A stretch of DNA of 64,000 bases, from contig BROI01000030.1 in NCBI GenBank assembly GCA_027923505.1, positions 186,001-250,000 on the forward strand, in the 5' to 3' direction. The position numbers were made by a program, and so were the translations under genes. Each line of letters begins with the position of its first letter. Position 1 is the stretch's first letter. The notes beneath the pieces were generated by a model. It made no database searches, was not told the origin of the DNA, and saw nothing but the letters and a program-made list of their open reading frames with translations. This document shows, piece by piece, positions 4,574 to 59,124 of the stretch. The DNA comes from Mayamaea pseudoterrestris (lineage: Eukaryota).

Positions 4574-4882
4574 GCTGGTAGATGGACAAGGAATCAATAG
4601 TAGTATAAAGTAACGGGGCCTTTTTCGCTTGATAGCAACAACAACGGGTGAGCGATGGCGTCGAACGAGAAAAGTGAGGAGGCTGGGTGGAAGTCGTTGG
4701 TTCGCTTCGCCAAAAAGGTGAAAGTCGTTCCGGTACACCCAGTTTCGCTGCGACTTCTTATTGTCGCGGATTCATCGGCCATCCGTTTTTTCCTTCCTCC
4801 AATTTCCGTCGACTCTACCAAACAAACCTCCTTCCTATATTGTACCTGCAACAAGCTCCTAACCTGCGTACATACATAAATC
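4574..4882. promoter_or_regulatory. Short (309 bp) divergent intergenic region, probable bidirectional promoter
   Basis: Lies between head-to-head starts of the Man1-like gene (4573, -) and TTC4 (4883, +). Position only; no motif identified. Confidence 0.45.
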
Positions 4883-16000: not shown

Positions 16001-17373
16001 AATGACACCAGAATTGTGCCAACATCATTATTCAGGCTGCGCTACAAGATGGTATGCGTGGCTAGTGTCTCGGGGATGGTATGATATTGGTGACAACTTG
16101 TCACCACTCAGCCCGCAGATGCCATGACATTCAAACGCCCCTACAGTAAGCCCTGTAGGTGCCCAAAATACACCAGAATGGTGCCAACATCATTATTCAG
16201 GCTGCGCTACAAGATGGTATACCTGGCTAGTGTCTCAGGGGATGGCAATGATATTGGTGACAACTTGTCACCAGTCTCAGCCTGCAGATGCCGTGACATT
16301 CAAACGCCCCTACAGCAGGCCCTGTAAAGCCCAAAATACACCAGAATATTGCCAACATCATTGCCGGCCTGGTCTAGGTCTCAGGGCCCACAAGAATTGG
16401 TCAACCCGTCTAGTGTCCAGATGCGTGATATTCAACTCGCCAGTCCAAACACTACAAGTGGAGGCGTGATCTCCCCAGATGCCGTGACATTCAAACGCAC
16501 CTACAGCAAGCCCTGTAGGTGCCCAAAATACACCAGAATGGTGCCAACATCATTATTCAGGCTGCGCTACAAGATGGTATGCCTGGCTAGTGTCTCAGGG
16601 GATAGCAATGATATTGGTGACAACTTGTCACCAGTCTCAGCCTGCAGATGCCGTGACATTCAAACGCCCTTACAGCAGGCCATGTATATACCCAAATGAC
16701 ACCAGAATGGTGCCAACATCATTTTTTTAGGCTGCGCTACAAGCTGGTATGCGTGGCTAGTGTCTAAGGGGACGGCAATGATATTGGTGACAACTTGTCA
16801 CCAGTCTCAGCCTGCAGATGCCATGACAATCAAACGCCCCTACAGCAGGCCATGTATACACCCAAATGACACCAGAATTGTGCCAACATCATTATCCAGG
16901 CTGCGCAACAAGATGGTATACCTGGCTAGTGTCCCAGGGGATGGCAATGATATTGGTGACAACTTGTCACCAGTCTCAGCCTGCAGATGCCGTGGCATTC
17001 AAACGCCCCTACAGCAGGCCATGTGTATACCCAAATGTCACCAGAAAATTGCCAACATCATTATTCAAGCTGCGCTAGAAGATGGTATGCCTGGCTAGTG
17101 TCTCAGGGGACAGCAATGACATTGGTGACAACTTGTCACCAGTCTCAGCCCGCAGATGACGTGACATTCAAACGCCCCTACAGGAAGCCCTGTAGGTGCC
17201 CAAAATACACCCGAATGGTGCCACCATTATTATTGTGGCTGCGCTACAAGTTGGTTTGCTTGACTGGTGTCTCAGGGCATGGCAATGTATTTGGTGACAA
17301 CTTGTCACCAGTCTCAGCCCGCAGATGTCGTGACATTAAACGCACCTACAGCAAGCCCTGTAGGTGCCCAAAT
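10065..17373 (+). repeat. Satellite A (169-bp monomer), subfamily A1, first block; indel-rich at its left end
   Basis: Tandem copies of ...aagatggtatgcctggctagtgtctcaggggacggcaatgatattggtgacaacttgtcaccagtctcagcctgcagatgccgtgacattcaaacgcccctacagcaggccatgtatacacccaaatgacaccagaatggtgccaacatcattattcaggctgcgctac... Confidence 0.97.
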
Positions 17374-19368
17374 CCAAATTATGGAATCATACCACTACAA
17401 TGCCCCATGCCCTGGCCACCCAACAACCCAATGAGTCAGGCAAAACATGTCCAGGGTGTGCCATGGACATGAGGATGGGCTGACATGGTGCAAAACGGAC
17501 TGCCTGGAGGCCTACACCATCTGCAAAATGGGTGTGGCCAACACCCCAAATTATGGACTCATACCACTACAATGCCCCATGCCCTGGCCACCCAACAACC
17601 CAATGAGTCAGGCAAAACATGTCCAGGGTGTGCCATGGACATGAGGATGGTCTGACATGGTACAAAACGGACTGCCTGGAGACCTACAGCATGGAATGGT
17701 CTACAAGATGGGTGCGGCCAACACCGCAAATTATGGAATCATACCACTACAATGCCCCGTCCCTTGATCACCCAACAACCCAATGAGTCATGCAAAACAT
17801 GTCCAGGGTGTGCCATTGACATGAGGATGGTCTGACATGGTACAAAACGGACTGCCTGGAGGCCTACAGCATGGAATGGTCTACAAGATGGGTGTGGCCA
17901 ACACCCCAAAATATGGAATCATACCACTACAATGCCCCATCCCCTGATCACCCAACAACCCAATGAGTCATGCAAAACATGTCCAGGGTGTGCCATTGAC
18001 ATGAGGATGGTCTGACATGGTACAAAACGGACTGCCTAGAGGCCTACAGCATGGAATGGTCTACAAGATGGGTGTGGCCAACACCCCAAATTATGGAATC
18101 ATACCACTACAATGCCCCATGCCCTGGCCACCCAACAACCCAATGAGTCATGCAAAACATGTCCAGGGTGTGCCATTGACATGAGGATGGGCTGAAATGG
18201 TGCAAAATGGACTGCCTGGATGCCTACACCATCTGCAAAATGGGTGTGGCCAACACCGCAAATTATGGAATCATACCACTACAATGCCCCATGCCCTGGC
18301 CACCCAACAACCCAATGTGTCAGGCAAAACATGTCCAGGGTGTGCCGTTGACATGAGGATGGGCTGAAATGGTGCAAAACGGACTGCCTGGAGGCCTACA
18401 CCATCTGCAAAATGGGTGTGGCCAACACCCCAAATTATGGAATCATACCACTACAATGCCCCATCCCCTGATCACCCAACAACCCAACGAGTCATGCAAA
18501 ACATGTCCAGGGTGTGCCAATGACATGAGGATGGTCTGACATGGTACAAAACGGACTGCCTGGAGGCCTACAGCATGGAATGGTCTACAAGATGGGTGTG
18601 GCCAACACCCCAAATTATGGAATCATACCACTACAATGCCCCATGCCCTGGCCACCCAACAACCCAATGAGTCAGGCAAAACATGTCCAGGGTGTGCCAC
18701 TGACAGGAGGATGGGCTGAAATGGTGCAAAACGGACTGGAAGGCCTACACCATCTGCAAAACGGGTGTGGCCAACACCCCAAATTATGGAATCATACCAC
18801 TACAATGCCCCGTTCCCTGATCACCCAACAACCCAATGAGTCATGCAAAACATGTCCAGGGTGTGCCACTGACACGAGGATGGTCTGACATGGTACAAAA
18901 CGGACTGCCTGGTGGCCTACAGCATGGAATGGTCTACAAGATGGGTGTGGCCAACACCCCAAATTATGGAATCATACCACTACAATGCCCCATGCTCTGG
19001 CCACCCAACAACCCAATGAGTCAGGCAAAACATGTCCAGGGTGTGCCATTGACATGAGGATGGGCTGAAATGGTGCAAAACGGACTGCCTGGAGGCCTAC
19101 AGCATGGAATGGTCTACAAGATGGGTATGGCCAACACCCCAAATTATGGAATCATACCACTACAATGCCCCATGCCCTGGCCACCCAACAACCCAATGAG
19201 TCAGGCAAAACATGTCCAGGGTGTGCCATTGACATGAGGATGGGCTGAAATGGTGCAAAACGGACTGCCTGCAAGGCCTACACCATCTGCAAAACGGGTG
19301 TGGCCAACACCCCAAATTAAGGAATCATACCACTACAATGTCCCGTCCCCTGATCACCCAACAACCCA
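17374..19368 (+). repeat. Satellite B block (~11 monomers of mainly 172 and 180 bp)
   Basis: The atgaggatgg motif or a one-base variant recurs at 17469, 17641, 17821, 18001, 18181, 18353, 18525, 18705, 18874, 19054 and 19234. Confidence 0.95.
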
Positions 19369-19385
19369 CTAACCCTAACCCTAAC
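19369..19385 (-). repeat. Interstitial telomeric repeat CTAACCCTAACCCTAAC (TTAGGG on - strand)
   Basis: Read directly at the SatB/SatA junction. Confidence 0.85.
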
Positions 19386-22300
19386 TAGGCCATGTATATA
19401 CCCAAATGACACCAGAATGGTGCTAACATCATTATTCAGGCTGCGCTACAAGATGGTAGGCTAGGCTGGTGTCTCAGGGCATGGCAATGTATTTGGTGAC
19501 AACTTGTCACCAGTCTCAGCCCGCAGATGACGTGACATTCAAACGCCCCTACAGGAAGCCCTGTAGGTGCCCAAAATACACCCGAATGGTGCCACCATTA
19601 TTATTGTGGCTGCGCTACAAGTTGGTTTGCTTGACTGGTGTCTCAGGGCATGGCAATGTATTTGGTGACAACTTGTCACCAGTCTCAGCCCGCAGATGTC
19701 GTGACATTAAACGCACCTACAGCAAGCCCTGTAGGTGCCCAAATTACACCAGACTGGTGCCAACATTATTATTCAAGCTGCGCTACAAGATGGTAGGCTT
19801 GGCTGGTGTCTCAGGAGACGGCAATGATATTGGTGACAACTTGTCACCAGTCTCAGCCTGCAGATGCCGTGACATTCAAACGCCCCTACAGCAGGCATTT
19901 AATACACCCAAATGACATCAGAATGGTGCCAACATCATTATTCAGGCTGCTCAACAAGATGGTATGCCTGGCTAGTGTCTCAGGGGACGGTAATAATATT
20001 GGTGACAACTTGTCACCAGTGTCAGCCTACAGATGCCGTGACATTCAAACGCCCTTACAGCAGGCCATGTATACACCCAAATGACACCAGAATGGTGCCA
20101 ACATCATTATTCAGGCTGAGCAACACGATGGTATGCCTGGCTAGTGTCTCAGGGGACGGCAATGATATTGGTGACAACTTGTCACCAGTCTCAGCCTGCA
20201 GATGCCGTGACATTCAAACGCCCCTACAGCAGGCCCTGTAGGTGCCCAAAATACACCAGAATATTGCCAACATCATTATTCAGGCTGCGCTACAAGATGG
20301 TATGCCTGGCTAGTGTCTCAGGGGACGGTAATGATATTGGTGACAACTTGTCACCAGTCTCAGCCTGCAGATGCCGTGACATTCAAACGCCCCTACAGCA
20401 GGCCATGTATACAACCAAATGACACCAGAATGGTGCCAACATCATTACTCAGGCTGCACAACAAGATGGTATGCCTGGCTAGTGTCTCAGGGGACGGCAA
20501 TGATATTGGTGACAACTTGTCACCAGTCTCAGTCTGCAGATGCCGTGACATTCAAACGCCCCTACAGCAGGCCATGTATACACCCAAATGACACCAGAAT
20601 GGTGCCAACATCATTATTCAGGCTGCGCAACAAGATGGTATGCCTGGCTAGTGTCTCAGGGGACGGCAATGATATTGGTGACAACTTGTCACCAGTCTCA
20701 GCCTGCAAATGCCGTGACATTCAAACGCCCTTACAGCAGGCCATGTATACACCCAAATGACACCAGAATGGTGCCAACATCATTATTCAGGCTGAGCAAC
20801 AAGATGGTATGCCTGGCTAGTGTCTCAGGGGACGGCAATGATATTGGTGACAACTTGTCACCAGTCTCAGCCTGCAGATGCCGTGACATTCAAACGCCCC
20901 TACAGCAGGCCCTGTAGGTGCCCAAAATACACCAGAATATTGCCAACATCATTATTCAGGCTGCGCTACAAGATGGTATGCCTGGCTAGTGTCTCAGGGG
21001 ACGGTAATGATATTGGTGACAACTTGTCACCAGTCTCAGCCTGCAGATGCCGTGACATTCAAATGCCCCTACAGCAGGCTATGTATACACCCAATTGACA
21101 CTGGAATGGTGGCAACATCATTATTCAGGCTGCGCTACAAGATGGTATGCCTAGCTATTGTCTCAGGGGACAGCAATGATATTGGTGACAACTTGTCACC
21201 AGTCTCAGCCCGGGGATGCTGTGACATTCAAACGCCCCTACAGCAGGCCATGAATATACCCAAATGACACCAGATTGGTGCCATCATCATTATTCAGGCT
21301 GCGCTACAAGATGGTATGCCTGGCTAGTGTCTCAGGGGACAGCAATGACATTGGTGACAACTTGTCACCAGTCTCAGCCTTCAGATGCCGTGACATTCAA
21401 ACGCCTTTACAGCAGGCCATGAATATACCCAAATGACACCAGAATGGTGCCAACATCATTATGCAGGCTGCGCTACAAGATGGTATACCTGGCTAGTGTC
21501 TCAGGGGATGGCAATGATATTGGTGACAACTTGTCACCAGTCTCAGCCTGCAGATGCCATGACATTCAAACGCCCCTACAGCAGGCCATGTATATACCCA
21601 AATGTCACCAGAATATTGCCAATATCATTATTCAAGCTGCCCTACAAGATGGTATGCCTGGCTAGTGTCTCAGGGGACAGCAATGATACTGGTGACAACT
21701 TGTCAACAGTCTCAGCCCGCAGATGCCGTGACATTCAAACGCCCCTACAGCAAGCCCTGTAGGTGCCCAAAATACACCAGAATGGTGCCAACATCATTAT
21801 TCAGGCTGCGCTACAAGATGGTATGCCTGGCTAGTGTCTCAGGGGACGGCAATGATATTGGTGACAACTTGTCACCAGTCTCAGCCTGCAGATGCCGTGA
21901 CATTCAAACGCCCTTACAGCAGGCCATGTATACACCCAAATGACACCAGAATGGTGCCAACATCATTATTCAGGCTGCGCAACAAGATGGTATGCCTGGC
22001 TAGTGTCTCAGGGGACGGCAATGATATTGGTGACAACTTGTCACCAGTCTCAGCCTGCAGATGCCATGACATTCAAACGCCCCTACAGCAGGCCATGTAT
22101 ACACCCAAATGACACCAGAATTGTGCCAACATCATTATCCAGGCTGCGCAACAAGATGGTATACCTGGCTAGTGTCCCAGGGGATGGCAATGATATTGGT
22201 GACAACTTGTCACCAGTCTCAGCCTGCAGATGCCGTGGCATTCAAACGCCCCTACAGCAGGCCATGTGTATACCCAAATGTCACCAGAAAATTGCCAACA

Positions 22301-25300
22301 TCATTATTCAAGCTGCGCTACAAGATGGTATGCCTGGCTAGTGTCTCAGGGGACAGCAATGACATTGGTGACAACTTGTCACCAGTCTCAGCCTTCAGAT
22401 GCCGTGACATTCAAACGCCTTTACAGCAGGCCATGAATATACCCAAATGACACCAGAATGGTGCCAACATCATTATTCAGGCTGCGCTACAAGCTGGTAT
22501 GCCTGGCTCGTGTCTCAGGGGACGGCAATGATATTGATGACAACTTGTCACCAGTCTCAGCCCGCAGATGCCGTGACATTCAAACGCCCCTACATCAGGC
22601 CCTGTAGGTGCCCAAAATACACCAGAATGGTGCCATCATCATTATTCAGGCTGCGCTACAAGATGGTATGCCTGGCTAGTGTCTCAGGGGACAGCAATGA
22701 CATTGGTGACAACTTGTCACCAGTCTCAGCCTTCAGATGCCGTGACATTCAAACGCCTTTACAGCAGGCCATGAATATACCCAAATGACACCAGAATGGT
22801 GCCAACATCATTATTCAGGCTGCGCTACAAGCTGGTATGCGTGGCTAGTGTTTAAGGGGACGGCAATGATATTGGTGACAACTTGTCACCAGTCTCAGCC
22901 TGCAGATGCCATGACAATCAAACGCCCCTACAGCAGGCCATGTATACACCCAAATGACACCAGAATTGTGCCAACATCATTATCCAGGCTGCGCAACAAG
23001 ATGGTATACCTGGCTAGTGTCCCAGGGGATGGCAATGATATTGGTGACAACTTGTCACCAGTCTCAGCCTGCAGATGCCGTGGCATTCAAACGCCCCTAC
23101 AGCAGGCCATGTGTATACCCAAATGTCACCAGAAAATTGCCAACATCATTATTCAAGCTGCGCTACAAGATGGTATGCCTGGCTAGTGTCTCAGGGGACA
23201 GCAATGACATTGGTGACAACTTGTCACCAGTCTCAGCCCGCAGATGACGTGACATTCAAACGCCCCTACAGGAAGCCCTGTAGGTGCCCAAAATACACCC
23301 GAATGGTGCCACCATTATTATTGTGGCTGCGCTACAAGTTGGTTTGCTTGACTGGTGTCTCAGGGGACGGCAATGATATTGGTGACAACTTGTCACCAGT
23401 CTCAGCCTGCAGATGCCGTGACATTAAACGCACCTACAGCAAGCCCTGTAGGTGCCCAAATTACACCAGACTGGTGCCAACGTTATTATTCAAGCTGCGC
23501 TACAAGATGGTAGGCTTGGCTGGTGTCTCAGGAGACGGCAATGATATTGGTGACAACTTGTCACCAGTCTCAGCCTGCAGATGCCGTGACATTCAAACGC
23601 CCCTACAGCAGGCATTTAATACACCCAAATGACATCAGAATGGTGCCAACATCATTATTCAGGCTGCGCTACAAGATGGTATGCCTGGCTAGTGTCTCAG
23701 GGGACGGTAATGATATTGGTGACAACTTGTCACCAGTGTCAGCCTGCAGATGCCGTGACATTCAAACGCCCTTACAGCAGGCCATGTATACACCCAAATG
23801 ACACCAGAATGGTGCCAACATCATTATTCAGGCTGCGCAACAAGATGGTATGCCTGGCTAGTGTCTCAGGGGACGGCAATGATATTGGTGACAACTTGTC
23901 ACCAGTCTCAGCCTGCAGATGCCGTGACATTCAAACGGCCCTTACAGCAGGCCCTGTAGGTGCCCAAAATACACCAGAATATTGCCAACATCATTATTCA
24001 GGCTGCGCTACAAGATGGTATGCCTGGCTAGTGTCTCAGGGGACGGCAATGATATTGGTGACAACTTGTCACCAGTCTCAGCCTGCAGATGCCGTGACAT
24101 ACAAACGCCCCTACAGCAGGCCATGTATACAACCAAATGACACCAGAATGGTGCCAACATCATTACTCAGGCTGCACAACAAGATGGTATGCCTGGCTAG
24201 TGTCTCAGGGGACGGCAATGATATTGGTGACAACTTGTCACCAGTCTCAGCCTGCAGATGCCGTGACATTCAAACGCCCCTACATCAGGCCATGTATACA
24301 CCCAAATGACACCAGAATGGTGCCAACATCATTATTCAGGCTGCGCTACAAGATGGTATGCCTGGCTAGTGTCTCAGGGGACGGCAATGATATTGGTGAC
24401 AACTTGTCACCAGTCTCAGCCTGCAGATGCCGTGACATTCAAACGCCCCTACAGCAGGCCATGTATACACCCAAATGACACCAGAATGGTGCCAACATCA
24501 TTATTCAGGCTGCGCTACAAGATGGTATGCCTGGCTAGTGTCTCAGGGGATGGCAATGATATTGGTGACAACTTGTCACCAGTCTCAGCCTGCAGATGCC
24601 GTGACATTCAAACGCCCCTACAGCAGGCCCTGTAGGTGCCCAAAATACACCAGAATATTGCCAACATCATTATTCAGGCTGCGCTACAAGATGGTATGCC
24701 TGGCTAGTGTCTCAGGGGACGGTAATGATATTGGTGACAACTTGTCACCAGTCTCAGCCTGCAGATGCCGTGACATTCAAACGCCCCTACAGCAGGCCAT
24801 GTATACACCCAATTGACACTGGAATGGTGGCAACATCATTATTCAGGCTGCGCTACAAGATGGTATGCCTGGCTAGTGTCTCAGGGGACAGCAATGATAT
24901 TGGTGACAACTTGTCACCAGTCTCAGCCCGCAGATGCCGTGACATTCAAACGCCCCTACAGCAGGCCATGTAGTGTCCAAAATGACACCAGAATGGTGCC
25001 AACATCATTATTCAGGCTGCGCTACAAGATGGTATGCCTGGCTAGTGTCTCAGGGGACGGTAATGACATTGGTGACAACTTGTCACCAGTCTCAGCCTTC
25101 AGATGCCGTGACATTCAAACGCCTACCAGCAGTCAGCCCTGTATGCCCAAAATGACACCAGAATGGTGCCAACATCATTATTCAGGCTGCGCTACAAGAT
25201 GATATGCCTGGCTAGTGTCTCAGGGGATGGCAATGATATTGGTGACAACTTGTCACCAGTCTCAGCCTGCAGATGCCGTGACATTCAAACGCCTTTACAG

Positions 25301-28300
25301 CAGGCCATGTAGGTGCCCAAAATGACACTAGAATGTTGCCAACATCATTATTCAGGCTGCGCTACAAGATGGTATGCCTGGCTAGTGTCTCAGGGGACAG
25401 CAATGATACTGGTGACAACTTGTCAACAGTCTCAGCCCGCAGATGCCGTGACATTCAAATGCCCCTACAGCAAGCCCTGTAGGTGCCCAAAATACACCAG
25501 AATGGTGCCAACATCATTATTCAGGCTGCGCTACAAGATGGTATGCCTGGCTAGTGTCTCAGGGGACAGCAATGACATTGGTGACAACTTGTCACCAGTC
25601 TCAGCCTGCAGATGCCGTGACATTCAAACGCCTCTACAGCAGGCCATGTATACACCCAAATGACACCAGAATGGTGCCAACATCATTATTCAGGCTGCGC
25701 TACAAGATGGTATGCCTGGCTAGTGTCTCAGGGGACGGCAATGATATTGGTGACAACTTGTCACCAGTCTCAGCCCGCAGATGCCGTGACATTCAAACGC
25801 CCCTACAGCAGGCCATGTATATACCCAAATGACACCAGAATGGTGCCAACATCATTATTCAAGCTGCGCTACAAGATGGTATGCCTGGCTAGTGTCTCAG
25901 GGGACAGCAATGATATTGGTGACAACTTGTCACCAGTCTCAGCCCGCAGATGCCGTGACATTCAAACGCCCCTACAGCAAGCCCTGTAGGTGCCCAAAAT
26001 ACACCAGAATGGTGCCAACATCATTATTCAGGCTGCGCTACAAGATGGTATGCCTGGCTAGTGTCTCAGGGGACGGCAATGATATTGGTGACAACTTGTC
26101 ACCAGTCTCAGCCTGCAGATGCCGTGACATTCAAACGCCCCTACAGCACGCGATGTACTTCCGAAAATGACACCAGAATGGTGCCAACATCATTATTCAG
26201 GCTGCGCTACAAGATGGTATGCCTGGCTAGTGTCTCAGGGGACGGCAATGACATTGGTGACAACTTGTCACCAGTCTCAGCCTGCAGATGCCGTGACATT
26301 CAAACGCCCCTACAGCAGGCCAGGTATATACCCAAATGACACCAGAATGTTGCCAACATCATTATTCAGGCTGCGCTACAAGATGGTATGCCTGGCTAGT
26401 GTCTCAGGGGACGGCAATGATATTGGTGACAACTTGTCACCAGTCTCAGCCTGCAGATGCCGTGACATTCAAACGCCCCTACAGCAGGCCATGTATGCAC
26501 CCAAATGACACCAGAATGGTGCCAACATCATTATTCAGGCTGCGCTACAAGATGGTATGCCTGGCTAGTGTCTCAGGGGACGGCAATGATATTGGTGACA
26601 ACTTGTCACCAGTCTCAGCCTGCAGATGCCGTGACATTCAAACGCCCCTACAGCAGGCCATGTATACACCCAAATGACACCAGAATGGTGCCAACATCAT
26701 TATTCAGGCTGCGCTACAAGATGGTATGCCTGGCTAGTGTCTCAGGGGACGGCAATGATATTGGTGACAACTTGTCACCAGTCTCAGCCTGCAGATGCCG
26801 TGACATTCAAACGCCCCTACAGCAGGCCATGTATACACCCAAATGACACCAGAATGGTGCCAACATCATTATTCAAGCTGCGCAACAAGATGGTATGCCT
26901 GGCTAGTGTCCCAGGGGACGGCAATGATATTGGTGACAACTTGTCACCAGTCTCAGCCTGCAGATGCCGTGACATTCAAACGCCCCTACAGCAGGCCATG
27001 TATACACCCAAATGACACCAGAATGGTGCCAACATCATTATTCAGGCTGCGCTACAAGATGGTATGCCTGGCTAGTGTCTCAGGGGACAGCAATGATATT
27101 GGTGACAACTTGTCACCAGTCTCAGCCTGCAGATGCCGTGACATTCAAACGCCCCTACAGCAGGCCCTGTAGGTGCCCAAAAGACACCAGAATGGTGCCA
27201 ACATCATTATTCAGGCTGCGCTACAAGATGGTATGCCTGGCTAGTGTCTCAGGGGACAGCAATGACATTGGTGACAACTTGTCACCAGTCTCAGCCTTCA
27301 GATGCCATGACATTCAAACGCCTTTACAGCAGGCCATGAATATACCCAAATGACACCAGATTGGTGCCAACATCATTATTCAGGCTGCGCAACAAGATGG
27401 TATGCCTGGCTAGTGTCTCAGGGGACAGCAATGATATTGGTGACAACTTGTCACCAGTCTCAGCCTGCAGATGCTGTGACATTCAAACGCCCCTACAGCA
27501 GGCCATGTATACACCCAAATGACACCAGAATGGTGCCAACATCATTATTCAGGCTGCGCTACAAGATGGTATGCCTGGCTAGTGTCTCAGGGGACGGCAA
27601 TGATATTGGTGACAACTTGTCACCAGTCTCAGCCCGCAGATGCCGTGACATTCAAACGCCCCTACAGCAGGCCATGTATACACCCAAATGACACCAGAAT
27701 GGTGCCAACATCATTATTCAGGCTGCGCAACAAGATGGTATGCCTGGCTAGTGTCTCAGGGGACGGCAATGATATTGGTGACAACTTGTCACCAGTCTCA
27801 GCCCGCAGATGCCGTGACATTCAAACGCCCCTACAGCAGGCCATGTATACACCCAAATGACACCAGAATGGTGCCAACATCATTATTCAGGCTGCGCTAC
27901 AAGATGGTATGCCTGGCTAGTGTCTCAGGGGACGGCAATGATATTGGTGACAACTTGTCACCAGTCTCAGCCCGCAGATGCCGTGACATTCAAACGCCCC
28001 TACAGCAGGCCCTGTAGGTGCCCAAAATACACCAGAATGGTGCCAACATCATTATTCAGGCTGCGCTACAAGATGGTATGCCTGGCTAGTGTCTCAGGGG
28101 ATGGCAATGATATTGGTGACAACTTGTCACCAGTCTCAGCCTGCAGATGCCGTGACATTTAAACGCCCCTACAACAGGCCAGGTATATACCCAAATGTCA
28201 CCAGAATATTGCCAAAATCATTATTCAGGCTGCGCAACAAGATGGTATGCCTGGCTAGTGTCTCAGGGGACGGCAATGATATTGGTGACAACTTGTCACC

Positions 28301-29151
28301 AGTCTCAGCCTGCAGATGCCGTGACATTCAAACGCCCCTACAGCAGGCCATGTATACACCCAAATGACACCAGAATGGTGCCAACATCATTATTCAGGCT
28401 GCGCAACAAGATGGTATGCCTGGCTAGTGTCTCAGGGGACAGCAATGATATTGGTGACAACTTGTCACCAGTCTCAGCCTGCAGATGCCGTGACATTCAA
28501 ACGCCCCTACAGCAGGCCATGTATACAACCAAATAACACCAGAATGGTGCCAACATCATTATTCAGGCTGCGCTACAAAATGGTATGCCTGGCTAGTGTC
28601 TCAGGGGATGGCAATGATATTGGTGACAACCTGTCACCAGTCTCAGCCTGCAGATGCCGTGACATTCAAACGCCCCTACAGCAGGCCATGTATACACCCA
28701 AATGACACCAGAATGGTGCCAACATCATTATTCAAACTGCGCTACAAGATGGTATGCCTGGCTAGTGTCTCAGGGGACGGCAATGATATTGGTGACAACT
28801 TGTCACCAGTCTCAGCCCGCAGATGCCGTGACATTCAAACGCCCCTACAGCAAGCCCTGTAGGTGCCCAAAATACACCAGAATGGTGCCAACATCATTAT
28901 TCAGGCTGCGCTACAAGATGGTATGCCTGGCTAGTGTCTCAGGGGACGGCAATGATATTGGTGACAACTTGTCACCAGTCTCAGCCTGCAGATGCCGTGA
29001 CATTCAAACGCCCCTACAGCAGGCCATGTATACACCCAAATGACACCAGAATGGTGCCAACATCATTATTCAGGCTGCGCTACAAGATGGTATGCCTGGC
29101 TAGTGTCTCAGGGGATGGCAATGATATTGGTGACAACTTGTCACCAGTCTC
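19386..29151 (+). repeat. Satellite A (169 bp), subfamily A1, homogeneous core (~58 monomers) with higher-order structure
   Basis: Equivalent ORF starts at 26336, 26505, 26674, 26843 and 27012 are exactly 169 bp apart. Diagnostic variants recur at ~3718 bp. Confidence 0.98.
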
Positions 29152-29379
29152 GGCTCATTCCGGTGCAGGGGGAAGAAAGCCGCACCGGACAATTGAACAC
29201 CAAGAAGCACATGCACCTACTCGAGACTTTACCTGATACCGCCTTACTACGCTCCGCGCGGCGAAAGCCTCGCGACGTCGATTCTCGTCTCCTCATTCTG
29301 TTGCACGAAGTCAACTGCAGACATCCGAGTCAAGCAGTTCCAGTACTTCATTAGATAGTCTCATAAGCTTCAGGCTACC

Positions 29380-31342
29380 ATGGCTGACGCTCCTCCTGTC
29401 CCTCACGCCATTGGGGGCCCCGCCGGCATCTCGACCAACGCCTCGCTCCTCGACTTCTTCGCCTCGCCGACCAACGACGCCCTTCGCGGCAACAGCCGCG
29501 CGTGGATCGAGCAGCTCGACCCACTTGTCCACGACTACGACGGCGCTGACATTCTCGAACGAATCGTCAGCGTGCCTCCGACGCGCGCCGGCGCTTACAT
29601 CCGTTACCATCGCACGGAACCAGGCGACACGATCGGGACGATCAAGGTTTACACTGGCTTTCAGCAGTACGTCGCAGGCCTCGTCATGACGCCCCTCGAC
29701 GGGCGAGTCTACGCTACGCTGGGCGACCTCGTCGCCGGCCAAGGGCACTGTGTACGCATCGTGGAACGCGACTTCGACGCCCTACCGAACGAGACGATCC
29801 CAACGACCGACGATATCGCGTGCGCCTGGTGGGACGACCACGACTGGACCGGCATGCTAGGCAACTGCGTACTCCAAGACCCGGGATTCGTGACACTTCG
29901 GTCGGCGACCCGTCGGGCGGCGGGCGGGCGCGACGCGGGACGCCTGCCCCTGCAGCACGAGCTGGTGGAGCTTCTGATGGATCACGAGTACGACAGAGGC
30001 CTACCGCACCGTGTTGCACGCGCGCGCGCCGACGCAATTTGACAATTATCCGCGAACTACGACTTTCTCCTTGCGCACGACACCGCCGCGATCCCGCTCG
30101 CTCGCTCCGCCGCCAGTGCCAGTGCTGATGACGCAATCCCTCGCCGAGCAGCGTGTCGCCGTGCATCGCATGTACCTTCCGCTGCCGGCGCCGCCCCAAG
30201 CACCAATCGACAGCATCCGACTGATGACGCTCCTCGCTCAAGAACGCAGCGCATCACGCAAAACGGACCCCCGCGCGCAACTCACCAGCGTTCGGCGACG
30301 TGGCATGACTCCACGAACGCTGGACGACAGCGACGCGTGGCCGCCTATCTGGGCGGTCCTCGCGGGTAGCACCAGCGCCAACGCATTGAACAACTTGGCC
30401 GACGCCTACCGCCAGTCGGGCGGACCAGGCTGCCGCCCCATCGCCACGCCAGCGCACTTGAGCCTCCTCAAGCACGTCGCGCTCGCGCCCGACAACATCA
30501 ACGACCTGACGCAAGGCCTCCAGCCGTTTATCGTCGCCACGCTCGACACCAGCACCAACTCAGCATCGACTCGAACGGCCGAGATCCAAGCCAACGTGGA
30601 AGACCACCAACTGGTCTTTGAAGGGGGCTCCGTGGACTTGCGCGACGCCCGCTCGTTCCGCGAGGCGAATCGCAAGATCTTCGCCCCGAACACCCCGACT
30701 CAGTTCCGCTCGCAGATGGAAGCCTACCTCAAGGTACTCAAGCAGGTACTAGGGGCGACGCACACGCTCACGGTAACAGTCGACACGTTCATGGTAATGT
30801 ACCGAGAGAAGGAGCACGACTACGAAGGCTACCTCGGCCGCATAAGTCAAGCAAAGGACGCATGGACCAGATCCGTGTCGCCACTTCCGACTTCGCGCGG
30901 ATGGAGCGCGGGGACACGACAGCGCCAGCGCTTCTCAGTCCCCTCCGCATGTGGGACTACCAAGTCCGCAGCTACGACCGATGCCGGCCCCGGTCCTGGC
31001 GCACACCTGGGCGCGGGGAGGGCGGGCGCAGCCGACGGCAGATTGGCGACAACAGGCACCGCGCGCCAGCCTGCAGGTGCCGCCACGCCCGCACGCCACG
31101 CAGCAGGGGCGCGGCACGCGGAGGCAGCGGACGCAGGCCACGCACCCACGGGCACCCACTCACCCTGCATTCACGCCATCCGCATCACGCATTCACGCGA
31201 CGACGGCACGCCGATGTGTCTAACCTACCATGTACGAGGCAGTTGCACGACAGCGTGCGCACGCCGCGCCGACCATGGCCCCCATACGCCGACTGAGACG
31301 GCGCGCTTGGTGGCCTGGTGCCAGTCCGTGCCGTCCCCGTAG
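29380..31342 (+). pseudogene. Gag-like ORF1 of the DIRS-like element (frameshifted)
   Basis: Overlapping ORFs 29380-30042 and 30011-31342, C-terminal CLTYHVRGSCTTACARRADH (C-x9-C-x3-C-x5-H), located immediately upstream of RT. Confidence 0.6.
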
Positions 31343-31408
31343 GGGGCCGGCAGGCCGTCGCCTGGCGCGCGACGGTCACAGCCTGCAAGTCTTCGGGAGG
31401 GTCGTCAA

Positions 31409-32700
31409 GTGAGGCGGCGGATCGAAGAAGGCAGGAGTAGTCTAACTGAAAACCTAACTAGTCACATGTTTGTTCCAAACGCTAATCTAGGTAAGCCACC
31501 ATTCGACGGAGCCGTTGGCAAACTGACCCAGCGCTCCACCACCACGTTACGCAGACGCCGTGCTGCACCGACCCCGACATTCCGACCGACATTAGCGTCC
31601 ATCTCCGAGTCCAGCGAGGAGACGCTCGACCCCTCGACACCGACAAGCGAAGTAGCGACTCGCGCCCCACCGACATCCTTCGACGCATCACGCACGCCAC
31701 CGCACACGCGCGGGGGTCCACGCGACGCACCTCCACGGCCACTGACACCCACGGCGCCTCGGCCGGCGCAACTCCTCGACGACCCACTCGGCGACCTAGT
31801 ACGCGAAGCACACCACACGCTGCAGGCCTCCACGTCGTGGGAGGACTTTATCATTCGAGTACGCGACCCACCGGACCTCGCCGACACGGTGGGCGACATT
31901 GACCATCCAGCGCGCCACCTCCTACGCCATCTTCGGGACCGGGGCGCGCCCGTCCAACTGCAGACTGCGCCGTGGACGGCGGAACGACGACAAGCCGCGA
32001 TCGACCGTGGCCCCCATCAGTCCGCCAAGGACCATCAAGCTTTTCTACGCGAAGAGTTCGCCGACATGATACACAAGGGACATTGGATCGTGGTACCAGC
32101 CAGTTCCGTCGCCCACTTGCCCGACCTGCGACTTAGCCCCGTGGGCGCCGTGGAACAACGGGAGCGACGACCGCGCACGATCGTGGACTACAGCTTCTTC
32201 GGCGTAAACGACGAGTCCGTGCCGATCGCACCATTCGAGTCGATGCAATTCGGCCGGGCCTTGCACCGAATCATGTATCGCGCCAATCCACGTTACGGAA
32301 ACGTACGCCTCGCGAAAATCGACATCGCCGACGGTTTCTACCGCATCGGGCTACGACCGGCCGACATACCGAAGTTGGGCGTCCTCTTTCCCACGAGTCC
32401 GGGCGAAGAACAACTGATAGCTTTTCCGCACGTCACCTATGGGGTGTATTCCGCCGCCATTCTTACGCCGGCCACCGAGACGATCGCCGACATCGCCAAC
32501 GCCACGCCACGCCACAACACCACCCGCACAGTGGAAAGGAAGCCGGGCAACGGTGGCCCAGCGCTCCCGCGCTCGCACGCGACTCCGTGCTCCGGTATGT
32601 CAACGCTCACGGCCCCCCAGTCGACGCCGAGCGCGTCGTGACTTTTGTGCCCAACGCAGTCGCGCGCCACCAAGCGGTACGCCGCCTCTTCCGCGACTCG
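31409..32700 (+). pseudogene. Reverse transcriptase ORF of the DIRS-like element (frameshifted, 3' degraded)
   Basis: LREEFADMIHKGHW, LRLSPVGAVEQRERRPRTIVDYSF, MQFGRAL, LAKIDIADGFYRIGL, TETIADIAN. No intact YxDD; the expected position reads YVNAH in another frame. Confidence 0.85.
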
Positions 32701-33050
32701 ACGTGTCCGCCTGCTCCTCCACCCACGCAAGTTACGCCGGCGCGTGTCCCGACGGTTCGGGTGGGCAGCTCCCCGCTTGCTACCGTCCAGTGGGGGGGGC
32801 CCGCCGCCTTGCCTGCGTCTGCGCGGCTCTTCTCGGGCTTTGCCTCCCCTCGAGCACTCGGGACCGCCTGAACCCGCCGTGCCACTTTTCTCCCGCTTTC
32901 GCGTCGTCCTCCCGCCTTCCCGCTTCCCGCACCACGGATGCAGCCGGCCGGGGCCGGCCGTTCTTCCCTCATAAATGGTGCCCGCAGGCACCCGCCGCCA
33001 TCATATACGGCGTCTCCACGCGATTCAGTCAATCCACTCACGCAGCACCG

Positions 33051-33423
33051 TGGTATACCCTGGACATGTTTGGCCTGACTCATTGGGTATTTGGGTGGCC
33101 AGGGCATGGGCGTTTGACAGGTAGAATCGACAACTTGTGGTGTTGGCCATACCCACCGTGAGCCGTGCCCATGGTGTCAGCCTCCAGGCAGTCCTTTTGC
33201 ACCATTTGAGACTCTGCCTGTCAATACCATACCCTGGACATGTTGGCTTGACTCATTGGGTATTTGGGTAGCCAGGGCATGGGGCGTTTGACAGGTCAGA
33301 ATCGACAACTTGTGGTGTTGGCCATACCCACCGTGGAGGCCGTGTGTGTCAGCCTCCAGGCAGTCCTTTTACCATTTGAGACTCTGCACCTGTGAATGGC
33401 ATACCTAGACTTGTCGTGGCCTG
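33051..33423 (-). repeat. About two monomers of satellite C inside the DIRS-like element
   Basis: ccctggacatgtttggcctgactcattgggtatttgggtggccagggcatggg... matches the 33833-42478 array. Confidence 0.85.
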
Positions 33424-33593
33424 ATTTCTCAGACTTCCTCCGAAATGGGAGGCTGTTGGAGCGACACTGGGCCTGGGGGGGGGCTGGCAAGTAAACTGCC
33501 TGTTAACACCAACTCGTCTCTCCAACTAGCTAGCTGCCTAGATGGGCTGGATGACAGCAAGCCGGTATGTCGGCTAGGACAAAGGACTGGCCG

Positions 33594-33803
33594 CTGCAGA
33601 TGCCGTGACATTCAAACGCCCCTACAGCAGGCCCTGTAGGTGCCCAAAATACACCAGAATGGTGCCAACATCATTATTCAGGCTGCGCTACAAGATGATA
33701 TGCCTGGCTAGTGTCTCAGGGGATGGCAATGATATTGGTGACAACTTGTCACCAGTCTCAGCCCGCAGATGCCGTGACATTCAAACGCCCCTACAGCAAG
33801 CCA
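33594..33803 (+). repeat. Satellite A1 remnant (~1.2 monomers)
   Basis: ctgcagatgccgtgacattcaaacg...ctacagcaagcca; includes the intact dyad. Confidence 0.95.
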
Positions 33804-33804
33804 A

Positions 33805-33832
33805 GTTAGGGTTAGGGTTAGGGTTAGGGTTA
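33805..33832 (+). repeat. Interstitial telomeric repeat G(TTAGGG)4TTA
   Basis: Read directly at the SatA/SatC junction. Confidence 0.95.
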
Positions 33833-36800
33833 TGCACCATTTGAGACTATGAACCTGTCAATGGCCTACCCTGGACATGTTTTGCCTGACTAATTGGGTA
33901 TTTGGGTGGCCAGGGCATGGGGCGTTTGACAGGGAAGAATCTGCAACTTGTGGTGTTGGCAATTGGGTATTTGGGTGGCCAGGGCATGGGGCGTTTGACA
34001 GGGAAGAATCTGCAACTTGTGGTGTTGGCATACCCACAGTGGAGGCCATACCCATGTTTTCAGCCTCCAGGCAGTCCTTTTTGCACCATTTGAGACTATG
34101 CACCTGTCAATGGCCTACCCTGGACATGTTTTGCCTGACTCATTGGGTATTTGGGTGGCCAGGGCATGGGGCGTTTGACAGGGAAGAATCTGCAACTTGT
34201 TAACGGACCGTGCTGTTTTCAGCCTCCAGGCAGTCCTTTTGCACCATTTGAGACTATGCACCTGTCAATGGCATACCCTGGACATGTTTTGCCTGACTCA
34301 TTGGGTATTTGGGTGGCCAGGGCATGGGGGCAAGGGAAAACTTGGGTTTTTGCCATACCCACAGTGGAGGCCGTACCCATGGTGTCAGCCTCCAGGCAGT
34401 CCTTTTTGCACCATTTGAGACTATGCACCTGTCAATGGCATACCCTGGACATGTTTTGCCTGACTCATTGGGTATTTGGGTGGCCAGGGCATGACAAGGG
34501 CGACAAATGACCGGGAGTACCCACGCCATGGTGTCAGCCTCCAGGCAGTCCTTTTGCACCATTTGAGACTATGCACCTGTCAATGGCATACCCTGGACAT
34601 GTTTTGCCTGACTCATTGGGTATTTGGGTGGCCATGGCATAAACGTTTGACAGGGAAGAATCTGCAACTTGTGGTGTTGGCCATACCCACCGTGGAGGCC
34701 GTACCCATGGTGTCAGCCTCCAGGCAGTCCTTTTTGCACCATTTGAGACTCTGCACCTGTCAATAGCATACCCTGGACATGTTTTGCCTGACTCATTGGG
34801 TATTTGGGTGGCCAGGGCATGGGGCGTTTGACAGGGAAGAATCTGCAACTTGTGGTGTTGGCCATACCACAGTGGAGGCCGTACCCTTGGTGTCAGCCTC
34901 CAGGCAGTCCTTTTTGCACCATTTGAGACTCTGCACCTGTCAATGGCATACCCTGGACATGTTTTGCCTGACTCATTGGGTATTTGGGTGGCCAGGGCAT
35001 GGGGCGTTTGACAGGGATGAATCTGCAACTTGTGGTGTTGGCCATACCCACAGTGGAGGGCGTAGCCATGCGGTGAGCCGGCAGGCAGTCCGGTGTGCAC
35101 CATTTGAGACTGTGCACCTGTCAATGGCATACCCTGGACATGTTTTGCCTGACTCATTGGGTATTTGGGTGGCCAGGGCATGGGGCGTTTGACAGGGAAG
35201 AATCTGCAACTTGTGGTGTTGGCCATACCCACAGTGGAGGCCGTACCCATGTTGTCAGCCTTCAGGCAGTCCTTTTTTGCACCATTTGAGACTCTGCACC
35301 TGTCAATGGCCTACCCTGGACATGTTTTGCCTGCTCATTGGGTATTTGGTGGCCAGGGCATGGGCGTTTGAAAGGAAGAATCTGCAACTTGTGGTGTTGG
35401 CCATACCCACAGTGGAGGCCGTACCCATGTTGTCAGCCTTCAGGCAGTCCTTTTTGCACCATTTGAGACTCTGCACCTGTCAATGGCATACCCTGGACAT
35501 GTTTTGCCTGACTCATTGGGTATTTGGGTGGCCAGGGCATGGGGCGTTTGACAGGGAAGAATCTGCAACTTGTGGTGTTGGCCATACCCACAGTGGAGGC
35601 CGTACCCATGTTGTCAGCCTCCAGGCAGTCCTTTTTGCACCATTTGAGACTCTGCACCTGTCAATGGCATACCCTGGACATGTTTTGCCTGACTCATTGG
35701 GTATTTGGGTGGCCAGGGCATGGGGCGTTTGAATGGGAAGAATCTGCAACTTGTGGTGTTGGCCATACCCACAGTGGAGGCCGTACCCATGTTTTCAGCC
35801 TCCAGGCAGTCCTTTTGCACCATTTGAGACTCTGCACCTGTCAATGGCATCCCCTGGACATGTTTTGCCTGACTCATTGGGTATTTGGGTGGCCAGGGCA
35901 TGGGGCGTTTGACAGTTCAGAATCGACAACTTGTGGTGTTGGCCATACCCACAGTGGAGGCAGTACCCATGGTGTCAGCCTCCAGGCAGTCCTTTTTGCA
36001 CCATTTGAGACTCTGCACCTGTCAATGGCATACCCTGGACATGTTTTGCCCTGACTCATTGGGTATTTGGGTGGCCAGGGCATGGGGCGTTTGACAGGTC
36101 AGAATCGACAACTTGTGGTGTTGGCCATACCCACCGTGGAGGCCGTACCCATGGTGTCAGCCTCCAGGCAGTCCTTTTTTTGCACCATTTGAGACTCTGC
36201 ACCTGTCAATGGCATACCCTGGACATGTTTTGCCTGACTCATTGGGTATTTGGGTGGCCAGGGCATGGGGCGTTTGACAGGTAAGAATCGACAACTTGTG
36301 GTGTTGGCCATACCCACAGTGGAGGCCGTACCCATGGTGTCAGCCTCCAGGCAGTCTTTTTTGCACCATTTGAGACTCTGCACCTGTCAATGGCATACCC
36401 TGGACATGTTTTGCCTGACTCATTGGGTATTTGGGTGGCCAGGGCATGGGGCGTTTGACAGGGAAGAATCTGCAACTTGTGGTGTTGGCCATACCCACAG
36501 TGGAGGCCGTACCCATGTTTTCAGCCTCTAGGCAGTCCTTTTCCCACCATTTGAGACTCTGCACCTGTCAATGGCATACCCTGGACATGTTTTGCCTGAC
36601 TCATTGGGTATTTGGGTGGCCAGGGCATGGGGCGTTTGACAAGGAAGAATCTGCAACTTGTGGTGTTGGCCATACCCACAGTGGAGGCCGTACCCATGTT
36701 GTCAGCCTCCAGGCAGTCCTTTTTGCACCATTTGAGACTCTGCACCTGTCAATGCCATACCCTGGACATGTTTTGCCTGACTCATTGGGTATTTTGGTGG

Positions 36801-39800
36801 CCAGGGCATGGGGCGTTTGACGGGGAAGAATCTGCAACTTGTGGTGTTGGCCATACCCACAGTGGAATTGCCCTACGCCTGTTGTCAGCCTCAGGCAGTC
36901 CTTTTGCACCATTTGAGACTATGCACCTGTCAATGGCATACCCTGGACATGTTTTTGCCTGACTCATTGGGTATTTAGGGTGTGCCAGGACATGGGGCGT
37001 TTGACAGGGGAAGAATCTGCAACTTGTGGTGTTGGCATACCCACAGTGGAGGCCGGTACCCCATTTTTTCCAGGCCTCCAGGCAGTCCTTTTTGCAGCAC
37101 CATTTGAGACTATGCACCTGTCAATGGCATACCCTGGACATGTTTTGCCTGACTCATTGGGTATTTGGGTGGCCAGGGCATGGGGCGTTTGACAGGGAAG
37201 AATCTGCAACTTGTGGTGTTGGCCATACCCACAGTGGAGGACGTACCCATGTTGTCAGCCTCCAGGCAGGACTTTTTTGCACCATTTGAGACTCTGCACC
37301 TGTCAATGGCATCCCCTGGACATGTTTTGCCTGACTCATTGGGTATTTGGGTGGCCAGGGCATGGGGACGTTTGACAGGATGAATCTGCAACTTGTGGTG
37401 TTGGCCATACCCCACAGTGGAGGCCGTACCCATGTTGTCAGCCTCCAGGCAGTCCTTTTTTTGCACCATTTGAGGCTATGACCGTGTCATTGGCATACCC
37501 TGGACATGTTTTGCCTGACTCATTGGGTATTTGGGTGGCCAGGGCATGGGGCGTTTGATAGGGAAGAATCTGCAACTTGTGGTGTTGGCCATACCCACAG
37601 TGGAGTACCCATGGTGTCAGCCTCCAGGCAGTCCTTTTTGCACCATTTGAGACTATGCACCTGTCAATGGCATACCCTGGACATGTTTTGCCTGACTCAT
37701 TGGGTATTTGGGTGGCCAGGGCATGGGGCATTTGACAGGGAAGAATCTGCAACTTGTGGTGTTGGCCATACCCACAGTGGAGGCCGTACCCATGTTGTCA
37801 GCCTCCAGGCAGTCCTTTTTGCACCATTTGAGACTATGCACCTGTCAATGGCATCCCCTGGACATGTTTTGCCTGACTCATTGGGTATTTGGGTGGCCAG
37901 GGCATGCTAGGGCATGGGGCGTTTGACAGGGAAGAATCTGCAACTTGTGGTGTTGGCCATACCCACAGTGGAGGCCGTACCCATGGTGTCAGCCTCCAGG
38001 CAGTCCTTTTTGCACCATTTGAGACTCTGCACCTGTCAGTGGCATACCCTGGACATGTTTTGCCTGACTCATTGGGTATTTGGGTGGCCAGGGCATGGGT
38101 CGGTTTGGCAGGAGAATCTACAACTTGTGGTGTTGGCCATACCCACAGTGGAGGCCGTACCCACGTTTTCAGCCTCCAGGCAGTCCTTTTGCACCATTTG
38201 ATACTATGCACCTGTCAATGCCACACCCTGGACATGTTTTGCCTGACTCTTTGGCGGTATTTGTAGGGCATGGGGCGTTTGACAGGAAAGAATCTACAAC
38301 TTGTGGTGTTGTACCCCACCGTGGAGGCCGTACCCATGTTGTGTCAGCCTCAGGCAGTCCTTTTTGCACCATTTGAGACTCTGCACCTGTCAATGGCATA
38401 CCCTGGACATGTTTTGCCTGACTCATTGGGTATTTGGGTGGCCAGGGCATGGGGCGTTTGACAGGGAAGAATCTGCAACTTGTGGTGTTAGCCATACCCA
38501 CAGTGGAGGCCGTACCCATGGTGTCAGCCTCCAGGCAGGCCTTTTTTGCACCATTTGAGACTCTGCACCTGTCAATGGCATACCCTGGACATGTTTTGCC
38601 TGACTCATTGGGTATTTGGTGGCCAGGGCATGGGGCGTTTGACAGGAGAATCTGCAACTTGTGGTGTTGGCCATACCCACAGTGGAGCCGTACCATAGTT
38701 GTCAGCCTCAGGCAGTCCTTTTGCACCATTTGAGACTCTGCACCTGTCAATGGCAAACCAGAGGCAATGACAGTAGGCCGCACCCATTTGTCAGCCTCCA
38801 GGCAGTCCTCTTATACCCTGGACATTTTTGCCTGACTCATTGGGTTTTGGGTGTGGGCATGGGGCGTTTGACGAGGGAAGAATCGCAACTGGGGGCCTTC
38901 CAGTGGAGCCGTACCCATGTTGTCAGCCTCCAGGCAGTCTTTTTGCACCATTTGGACTCTCACCTGTCAATGGCCTCCCTGGACATGTTTTGCCTACATT
39001 TCATTGAATTGTTGGTGGCTTGGGGCATGCTTGAGCAGGGAAGATCTGTTGTGGTGTTGTCCCACAGTGGAGCCGTACCCATAGTGTCAGCCTCAAACAG
39101 TCCTTTTCCATTGGGACTATGCACCTGTCAATGGCCTACCCTGGACATGTTTTACTTTCTGCTTTTACCACCTTACCTGCACCTGTCATAGGTGTTGGGC
39201 AGCCAGGGCATGGGGCGTCACAGCAAGGAAGAATCTGCAACTTGTGGTGTTAGCCATACCCACAGTGGAGGCAGGGCATGGGGCGTTGAAGGTCAAAATT
39301 GACAATGTGGTGTTGGACCATACCCACCCTCGGAGGCGATCCATGGTGTCACCTCCAGGCAGTCCTTTTGCACCATTTGAGACTCTGCACCTGTCAATGG
39401 CATACCCTTGACATGTTTGGCCTGACTCATTGGGTATTTGGGTGGCCAGGGCATGGGGCGTTTAACAGGGAAGAATCTGCAACTTGTGGTGTTGGCCATA
39501 CCCACCGTGGAGGCCGTACCCATGGTGTCAGCCTCCAGGCAGTCCTTTTTGCACCGACTGTCAATGGCATACCCTGGACATGTTTGGCCTGACTCATTGG
39601 GTATTTGGATGGCCAGGGCATGGGGCGTTTGACAGGTCAGAATCTGCAACTTGTGTTGGCCATACCCACCTGGACGCTCCTGCACTCCATGGTGTCGCCT
39701 CCAGGCAGTCATTTTGCACCATTTGGAGTATTCTACACCTGTCAATGGCATACCCTGGACATGTTTGGCCTGACTCATCGGGTATTTGTGGCCAGGGCAT

Positions 39801-51400: not shown

Positions 51401-51645
51401 GTGTATTTACTTTGTGCATTTGCCTCCTGCATGTTGCCTGCTTCTAATCCGCAGACGTTGCTGGTTGAACTACCCAATGCGAACACAACAGAGTGGAAAC
51501 ATAAGTGCCCACAACTCTATGCGTACAGAGAGATGATGAGGGCACAAGAAATTGGTGAATTTGTTTTGCGCATCAGCCTCCTGCTTGCCTTTTGCCTGCA
51601 GGTCAGCAGCGCTTCAGTTAGCAGGTGGGCTATGTGACTGCCTAC
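42490..51645 (+). repeat. Satellite D (~330-350 bp unit, a dimer of two diverged ~170-180 bp halves)
   Basis: gcagtggcaaacatcagatcccc recurs at e.g. 47539/47879 and 48838/49181; the related gcagtggcaaacatgaagtgccc lies about half-way between. Confidence 0.93.
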
Positions 51646-59120: not shown

Positions 59121-59124
59121 CCGG

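Follow-up and report, generated by a model that had tools for sequence, protein, structure and literature searches.

How do two short telomeric tracts that face away from each other come to lie 14.4 kb apart within satellite DNA? The question is raised by a stretch of 64,000 nucleotides from the diatom Mayamaea pseudoterrestris (assembly GCA_027923505.1, contig BROI01000030.1, positions 186,001 to 250,000 of the forward strand), which at its full length is called the window below. From 10 kb to its end the window is made up almost throughout of tandem repeats, named here SatA, SatB and SatC, and the two tracts, referred to as seeds, stand where SatA meets SatB. Short internal telomere tracts record past chromosome breaks and the way in which the ends were mended, and the junctions in question are exact sequence tags that could serve to show whether diatom satellites have a preferred break site, whether telomerase has a part in internal repair and whether healed ends preferentially receive one satellite family. 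Literature searches turned up no description of internal telomere tracts at satellite boundaries in diatoms. A sequence-only reading of the region had likened the interval between the seeds to an embedded mini-chromosome. The answer favoured here, which we regard as about evenly poised between right and wrong, is that both seeds are short interstitial telomeric sequences (ITSs), independent of each other, in a satellite-rich diatom region.

The telomere repeat reported for diatoms is TTAGGG/CCCTAA (PMC13538412). The two telomeric seeds are real and non-random. The left one reads CTAACCCTAACCCTAACT, about 2.7 repeats of the C strand, and the right one holds 4.5 perfect repeats. A search for TTAGGGTTAGGG with at most one mismatch gave five matches in the window, all at the two seeds, against 0.16 expected from shuffled sequence (0 of 100 shuffles reached five); the outward-facing polarity of the seeds, which the sequence-only reading had reported, is confirmed. 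With tracts of just 16–27 bases and kilobases of other sequence on each side, both seeds consist of a few near-perfect hexamers at a non-terminal site, as is expected of a short ITS at a repaired break. On the G strand both junctions (2/2) read SatA, then TTAGGG, then SatB in its G+T-rich orientation, the strand of SatB into which the telomeric G strand runs being 56% G+T. This is the fixed order of proximal repeat, G-strand tract and distal repeat that characterizes the X-ITS-Y' type of yeast. The earlier reading had found the same order, and in this it was correct; its further statement that SatB and SatC are mirrored beyond the seeds holds for SatB, which lies in opposite orientations on the two sides, and fails for SatC, which occurs on the right only. 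All counts of recurrence and orientation given here cover the two seed junctions of this window. A fusion-type ITS, with head-to-head (TTAGGG)n(CCCTAA)n, was considered and set aside, the tracts being 14.4 kb apart and facing outward.

The anatomy of the junctions on the SatA side is described with reference to a unit that starts with CCTACAG at 26647. At the right seed SatA stops at unit position 14 (...CAAGCCA, base 33803), and at the left seed it resumes at unit position 9 (AGGCC..., base 19387). The sequence AGGCCA, with the core GGCC, is common to both breakpoints on opposite strands, and the seeds abut SatA within the same 4–6 bases; the breakpoints resemble the left and right products of a single type of break with a 4–6-base 3' overhang. 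The site is a GGCC-centred spacer between the inverted-repeat arms CCTACAG ... CTGTAGG. Because of this inverted repeat, SatA carries its own telomere-like TGTAGG(G) on both strands, and this motif stands 3–4 bases beyond each breakpoint. In SatA units of the CAAGCC type the region is predicted to fold into a 10-bp hairpin with the loop CAAGCC (-11.4 kcal/mol, z -4.9, 0 of 200 shuffles as good), and a weaker version of it reaches -6.9 kcal/mol (z -1.8); on folding the common CAGGCCATG-type SatA, the hairpin was not formed (z +1.09). At the right seed the broken unit belongs to the CAAGCC type, and the break falls at the 3' edge of the hairpin loop. Every SatA unit also holds a palindrome with an 8-bp stem, GGTGACAA-C-TTGTCACC.

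Both seeds open on the G strand with the dinucleotide AG before TTAGGG, after GCCA in one case and GCCT in the other, and this AG is out of register with the repeats. Among 60 unselected tract starts in other organisms, AG preceded TTAGGG in three and the in-register GG in 35. The possibility that AG is a general telomerase start was rejected, since only 3/60 tract starts carry it.

On the far side of the seeds, the left tract merges into the telomere-like G-cluster motif of SatB, TGGGTTGTTGGGTG, and the right tract runs into TGCACCATTTGAG, which is followed by about 700 bp of rearranged SatB that include a 69-bp duplication at 33892–34030. The entry points into SatB are 62 of 181 bases apart within the unit. 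The left and right blocks, SatB_L and SatB_R, are about 78–79% identical and of opposite orientation, and units inside each block are 87–93% alike. SatB is a plain tandem repeat and has no unique coding sequence. Given the difference in SatB phase and the low identity between SatB_L and SatB_R, the junctions are not recent copies of each other; an origin as recent inverted copies was rejected on these two grounds and because the SatA strand differs.

The surroundings of the left seed look like those of an insertion. SatB_L is a 2-kb island within SatA, and SatA of the same orientation continues leftward (10071–17373). The segment 16473–17373 matches 22561–23461 at 97.7%, and 19387–20400 matches 23104–24118 at 96.7%, so that, measured against this uninterrupted SatA copy, about 358 bp are common to the two flanks of the left insertion. 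Positions 17122–17373 and 19493–19744 are identical (252/252) and have their differences from the third copy in common, and SatA outside and inside the insertion keeps the same higher-order register. With the outer and the inner SatA 252/252 identical in register, the left seed appears to sit in an insertion bounded by a direct duplication inside a single SatA array. The weight of this flank evidence lies in register and shared variants, not in length alone. The 106 bases beside the seed (19387–19492) are identical to their left counterpart at 88 of 106 positions and represent a SatA variant whose best match in the window is 92.6% and which is not found elsewhere there. In sum, the left flanks are SatA in register, with a 252–358-bp overlap, plus 2 kb of SatB, and at the right seed SatA stands on one side and SatB on the other. 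For the left insertion, a 20-bp target duplication of the simple kind was rejected, as the two 20-mers belong to different SatA variants. The higher-order pattern of SatA is visible in the displacement of 23.1–25.7 kb against 19.4–22 kb by about 3717 bp (22 units).

The interval between the seeds had been taken for a single 14.5-kb satellite block, and this description had to be given up: it comprises 9.8 kb of SatA, a 4.4-kb retroelement with two SatB units and another 0.2 kb of SatA. The insert has a GC content of up to 66% and is set between AGC and CTG of one SatA unit (SatA ...CAGTCTCGGC / insert / CTGCAGATG...), with nothing duplicated or lost. Its truncated reverse-transcriptase open reading frame (ORF), at 31343–32641, has 451 public metagenome proteins at E <= 0.001 among 2690 candidates, with identities of up to 61% among the matches listed. 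Among its listed relatives 19 of 120 carry PF00078 (precomputed), and four of eight long relatives have RVT_1 as weak matches, all below the Pfam cut-off; the ORFs of the retroelement in the window gave no Pfam match themselves. The reverse transcriptase that a DIRS/Ngaro-like insert should encode is thus found by way of the relatives. Public runs matching the genic 10 kb of the window (five holders, two studies) were found, and four of them (X1–X4) were compared with 29100–33960. Contigs from these runs join the tail of the insert, 33593, to its head, 29155 (X1, X2), and others join 29372 by way of 18 other nucleotides to 33461 (X1, X2, X4). A tail-to-head junction without target duplication, as in elements with split direct repeats, is therefore present, and the two kinds of joint fit a DIRS/Ngaro-like element. 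No tyrosine recombinase domain was found in the three ORFs scanned, the copy being truncated after reverse-transcriptase motif A, and no terminal repeats were found within the window copy.

Other copies of the retroelement have GC-rich sequence, not SatB, before the tail (loose ends at 33403, X2 and X4), so the two SatB units at 33051–33424 are peculiar to this copy. These SatB pieces occur without a telomere seed; therefore SatB is also taken up at other lesions. The reverse-transcriptase ORF remnant is separated from the SatB units by a GC-rich stretch, 32523–33040, which has no similar sequence elsewhere in the window.

The explanation that we favour is that the seeds are short interstitial telomeric repeats that would have arisen at telomerase-patched SatA breaks, been joined to SatB and later been moved by satellite recombination; on the sequence at hand we give it an even chance. 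A 3' end would be created within a SatA unit, at the GGCC-centred spacer of the CCTACAG/CTGTAGG inverted repeat, and telomerase would add a few repeats to it. The patched end would then be joined to SatB, or would prime synthesis on it, the telomeric G strand passing into the G+T-rich SatB strand. Of the two products of such a break, the right junction may represent the 'left-fragment' one and the left junction the 'right-fragment' one. The simplest reading of the left seed would be that a pre-existing SatB-seed-SatA junction was copied or recombined into the array from elsewhere: together with roughly 2 kb of SatB and some 106 bp of a foreign SatA variant, the junction probably reached the present SatA array by copying at a later stage. 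The process could be recombination or template switching, in which one side was closed by end joining and the other by way of SatA homology inside the first unit, and it would have left the 252–358-bp direct duplication. The resemblance to a mini-chromosome would then be a by-product, because two junctions of opposite type happen to stand 14 kb apart. The sequence-only reading had likewise proposed that SatA was broken, healed by telomerase and joined to SatB; the G-strand polarity, the short perfect seeds and the differing SatB phase are in keeping with this, and we continue to infer it.

Several observations weigh against this explanation. There are only two junctions, so that recurrence and orientation bias rest on 2/2, and both are known from assembled contig sequence. 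Neither seed begins in register with the break end, as the repeats do at most informative loci in mammals, and an AG out of phase with the added repeats is atypical of simple telomerase priming; by analogy with mammals, a possible parallel would be extra bases templated beside the template of the telomerase RNA. The left break lies in a CAGGCCATG SatA variant, which has no hairpin. The 252-nt pair ties for ninth among 345 exact pairs of at least 100 nt, and exact repeats of at least 250 nt are not rare in these arrays, so that flank identity is not in itself unique evidence. Finally, the hexamer CCAAAT is present twice at the SatA/SatB_L join (17373/17374), once to the left and once to the right of it, which is not the pattern of a classic microhomology join.

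The regularities of the junctions could also be read as the mark of a discrete unit, whose end would be AG(TTAGGG)n-SatB and which would enter SatA site-specifically, at its GGCC core and in both orientations; the candidates are a mobile element not recognised as such, or SatB arrays or circles whose synthesis was primed by a telomeric 3' end. The use of the same 4–6 SatA bases on opposite strands around a palindromic core, the identical AG before the first TTAGGG (seen in only 3/60 starts elsewhere), the like polarity of SatB at 2/2 junctions and the merging of the left tract into the G-cluster motif would all be expected of such a unit. It is nevertheless not very likely, with two cases only, SatB starting points 62/181 bases apart and a SatB that is a plain tandem repeat; moreover, the sole nearby reverse-transcriptase element is inserted elsewhere in SatA, with 210 bp of SatA between it and the seed. 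The chance of both coincidences, about 11/169 (~0.065) for the closeness of the breakpoints times 1/16 for the shared dinucleotide, is arithmetic made after seeing the data. A related proposal, which we consider unlikely, is that SatA was cut at one defined site and healed with a fixed AG lead-in, and that the ends were lengthened by SatB copying through the G-cluster motif. If true, it would amount to a recurrent, polarity-specific, satellite-based form of end repair or capping in a diatom, comparable to programmed breakage or to the maintenance of telomeres by recombination. A quite unlikely possibility is that telomere-ending reads were wrongly joined to satellite reads during assembly. About 54 kb of near-identical tandem repeats are hard to assemble, and bins 32686–33011 were without cover in 4/4 runs, the preceding bin having next to none, which is counted here as no evidence. 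True terminal reads, however, would bear long telomere arrays and not 16–27 bases between kilobases of satellite, and the flank duplication at the left insertion is ordered and in higher-order register. The local assembly is also coherent, because the SatA phase is kept exactly across the 4.4-kb retroelement and the head and tail of the element are confirmed by independent contigs from two studies.

The mini-chromosome of the earlier reading, or the capture of a capped fragment that it gave as a variant, fares worse. A once-free SatA fragment or linearised circle, capped by telomerase at both ends and re-integrated, would explain why the seeds face outward; in addition, SatA between them, minus the retroelement, comes arithmetically to about 59 x 169 + 7, whole units plus 4–6 bases, a length expected if a circle had been cut a single time, or an array twice at one site. 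Yet the outside SatA has the same orientation as the inside SatA and overlaps it in register (252/252), the 106 bases beside the left seed are a foreign SatA variant, so that the left end is recombinant, and the flanking SatB blocks are diverged subfamilies, not one interrupted array. Seeds of 16–27 bases are far shorter than functional telomeres, and the block holds a retroelement and SatB. A healed mini-chromosome should show terminal arrays of functional length on a molecule unrelated to its flanks; what was found are internal seeds and SatA that overlaps in register. That the seed pair was once the two ends of a free capped molecule is not supported, and we judge it very unlikely. The notion that slippage or mutation made the seeds expand in situ out of the telomere-like motif of SatA (CTGTAGGG / CCCTACAG), 3–4 bases from both junctions, is the extreme case. 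MAFFT does align the left seed onto SatA CAAACGCCCCTACAGC, and the inverted repeat puts TGTAGG(G) on both strands; but SatB, not the remainder of SatA, lies beyond each seed, so that there is a junction in any case, each of the two would require three to four additional changes to reach AGT and TAGGG, and no expanded tract occurs in other SatA units among those listed. Such growth is extremely improbable.

The features of the window are collected in Table 1. Outside the seed-bearing part, the joins of SatC with SatB (42477/42494) and with SatA (51646) hold no telomere repeats, and a dodecamer scan with at most one mismatch found no telomeric seed at the boundaries of the 56250–59146 segment. 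That segment parts SatA in the forward orientation from the inverted SatA, and its ORFs gave no Pfam matches. SatC has undergone very recent internal duplications, with exact repeats of 627 and 412 bases. The coding region stops about 70 bases short of the first degenerate SatA unit (10071). Pfam families were detected in 2 of 10 ORFs scanned, a TTC4/Cns1-like protein and a FAD monooxygenase. The nearest protein clusters of the latter are diatom clusters, and its signal-peptide-like N terminus is typical of secondary-plastid algae. A comparison of the whole window with Rfam gave 0 matches.

Table 1. Satellite arrays, telomeric seeds, the retroelement and genes in the 64,000-nt window.
Feature	Position	Strand	Remarks
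Genes	first 10 kb (1–10 kb)		ordinary coding region; satellites from there to window end
TTC4/Cns1-like ORF	4880–6475	+	adjoins zeaxanthin-epoxidase-like ORF
Zeaxanthin-epoxidase-like FAD monooxygenase ORF	6672–8399	-	intron-free; N terminus signal-peptide-like
SatA array, 169-bp unit	10071–17373	+	same orientation as inner SatA
SatB_L, ~11 units, 180-bp satellite	17374–19368	-	G+T-rich strand = minus, continuous with left-seed G strand
Left telomeric seed, ~2.7 repeats	19369–19386	-	G strand: AG TTAGGG TTAGGG TTAG
Inner SatA array, ~58 units	19387–29154	+	first base = monomer position 9 (AGGCC...)
GC-rich retroelement insert	29155–33593	+	reverse-transcriptase ORF remnant 31343–32641; SatB units 33051–33424
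Final 1.25 SatA units	33594–33803	+	last base = monomer position 14 (...CAAGCCA)
Right telomeric seed, AG + (TTAGGG)4 + TTA	33804–33832	+	
SatB_R, ~47 units of 181 bp	33833–42477	+	opposite orientation to SatB_L
SatC, 334–341-bp unit (~340 bp)	42494–51646	+	right side only
More diverged SatA array	51646–56250	+	
2.9-kb non-satellite piece	56250–59146		GC ~55%
Inverted SatA array	59146–64000	-	

What is odd about the locus is that one SatA site is used on both strands, that AG leads into both tracts and that SatB has one polarity at the two junctions. Should the pattern recur throughout the genome, it would represent a new repair or capping habit; if not, the seeds are two ordinary repair scars. 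Public metagenomes were scanned with one degenerate 21-mer for both junction types, and at least 104 stretches matched, from other, mostly GC-rich, eukaryotes; none of these stretches had SatA, SatB or the retroelement in common with the window. Within GC-rich contigs of marine eukaryotes, exact direct repeats of 10–25 bases flank 30 of 78 non-redundant internal tracts (e.g. L062, L058, L066, L069, L102), and the flanked tracts have the appearance of inserted telomere repeats with duplicated target sites. For L062, GT...AG on the C strand would come from the duplicated target, together with CTAAC branch-like motifs, and such insertions could therefore create introns; a literature search on telomere-repeat introns turned up no description.

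Among known systems, the yeast subtelomere offers a close formal parallel, in which a core X element is followed by a short TG1-3 tract and a Y' element, an arrangement spread by recombination between chromosome ends. Here, too, a proximal repeat, a short tract and a distal repeat follow one another on the G strand with fixed polarity, although SatB is a 181-bp satellite and not a helicase-encoding element, and the two tracts face away from each other. In chromosome healing, de novo telomere addition has hotspots at internal telomere-like seeds. Both breakpoints described here are likewise 3–4 bases from the TGTAGG(G) of SatA and at a hairpin-prone inverted repeat; unlike at the hotspots, addition did not start at the telomere-like motif, and the healed ends are internal today. 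Retroelements that attach to telomeres, such as the Penelope-like Athena/Coprina, MoTeR and TRAS/SART, produce the same sequence of chromosome, telomere repeats and foreign DNA in fixed polarity. In the window, by contrast, no reverse transcriptase or other ORF accompanies SatB and the nearby reverse-transcriptase element is unrelated to the seeds; an element of this kind was rejected as the source of the junctions, the one present being bounded at 29155/33593, 210 bp from the seed, and SatB being a pure tandem repeat.

In Arabidopsis, centromeric-telomeric mosaic satellites are reported in which telomeric repeats belong to the unit itself and have taken part in megabase expansion (bioRxiv 10.64898/2026.05.10.723265). 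The likeness is that telomere repeats are embedded in, or spread with, satellite arrays and are not relics of fusion; the difference is that here one short tract marks each array boundary. The mammalian short ITSs are telomeric repeats inserted at double-strand breaks, an insertion that can bring with it deletions, extra sequence or duplication of the target (PMC2246262). In the same work, in-register microhomology is found at 67–80% of informative loci, target-site duplication at 6/130 rodent and 4/25 primate loci and addition at 22/130 and 4/25, respectively, and in 8 of 14 special loci extra bases are templated beside the telomerase RNA template. The seeds of M. pseudoterrestris resemble them in having few exact hexamers at an internal site, in the possible presence of added sequence or duplication, and in the non-telomeric bases that sometimes precede the repeats. 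They differ in that the break ends are out of register with the repeats, and in scale, the added sequence amounting to kilobases of satellite and the duplication to 252–358 bp instead of a few bases.

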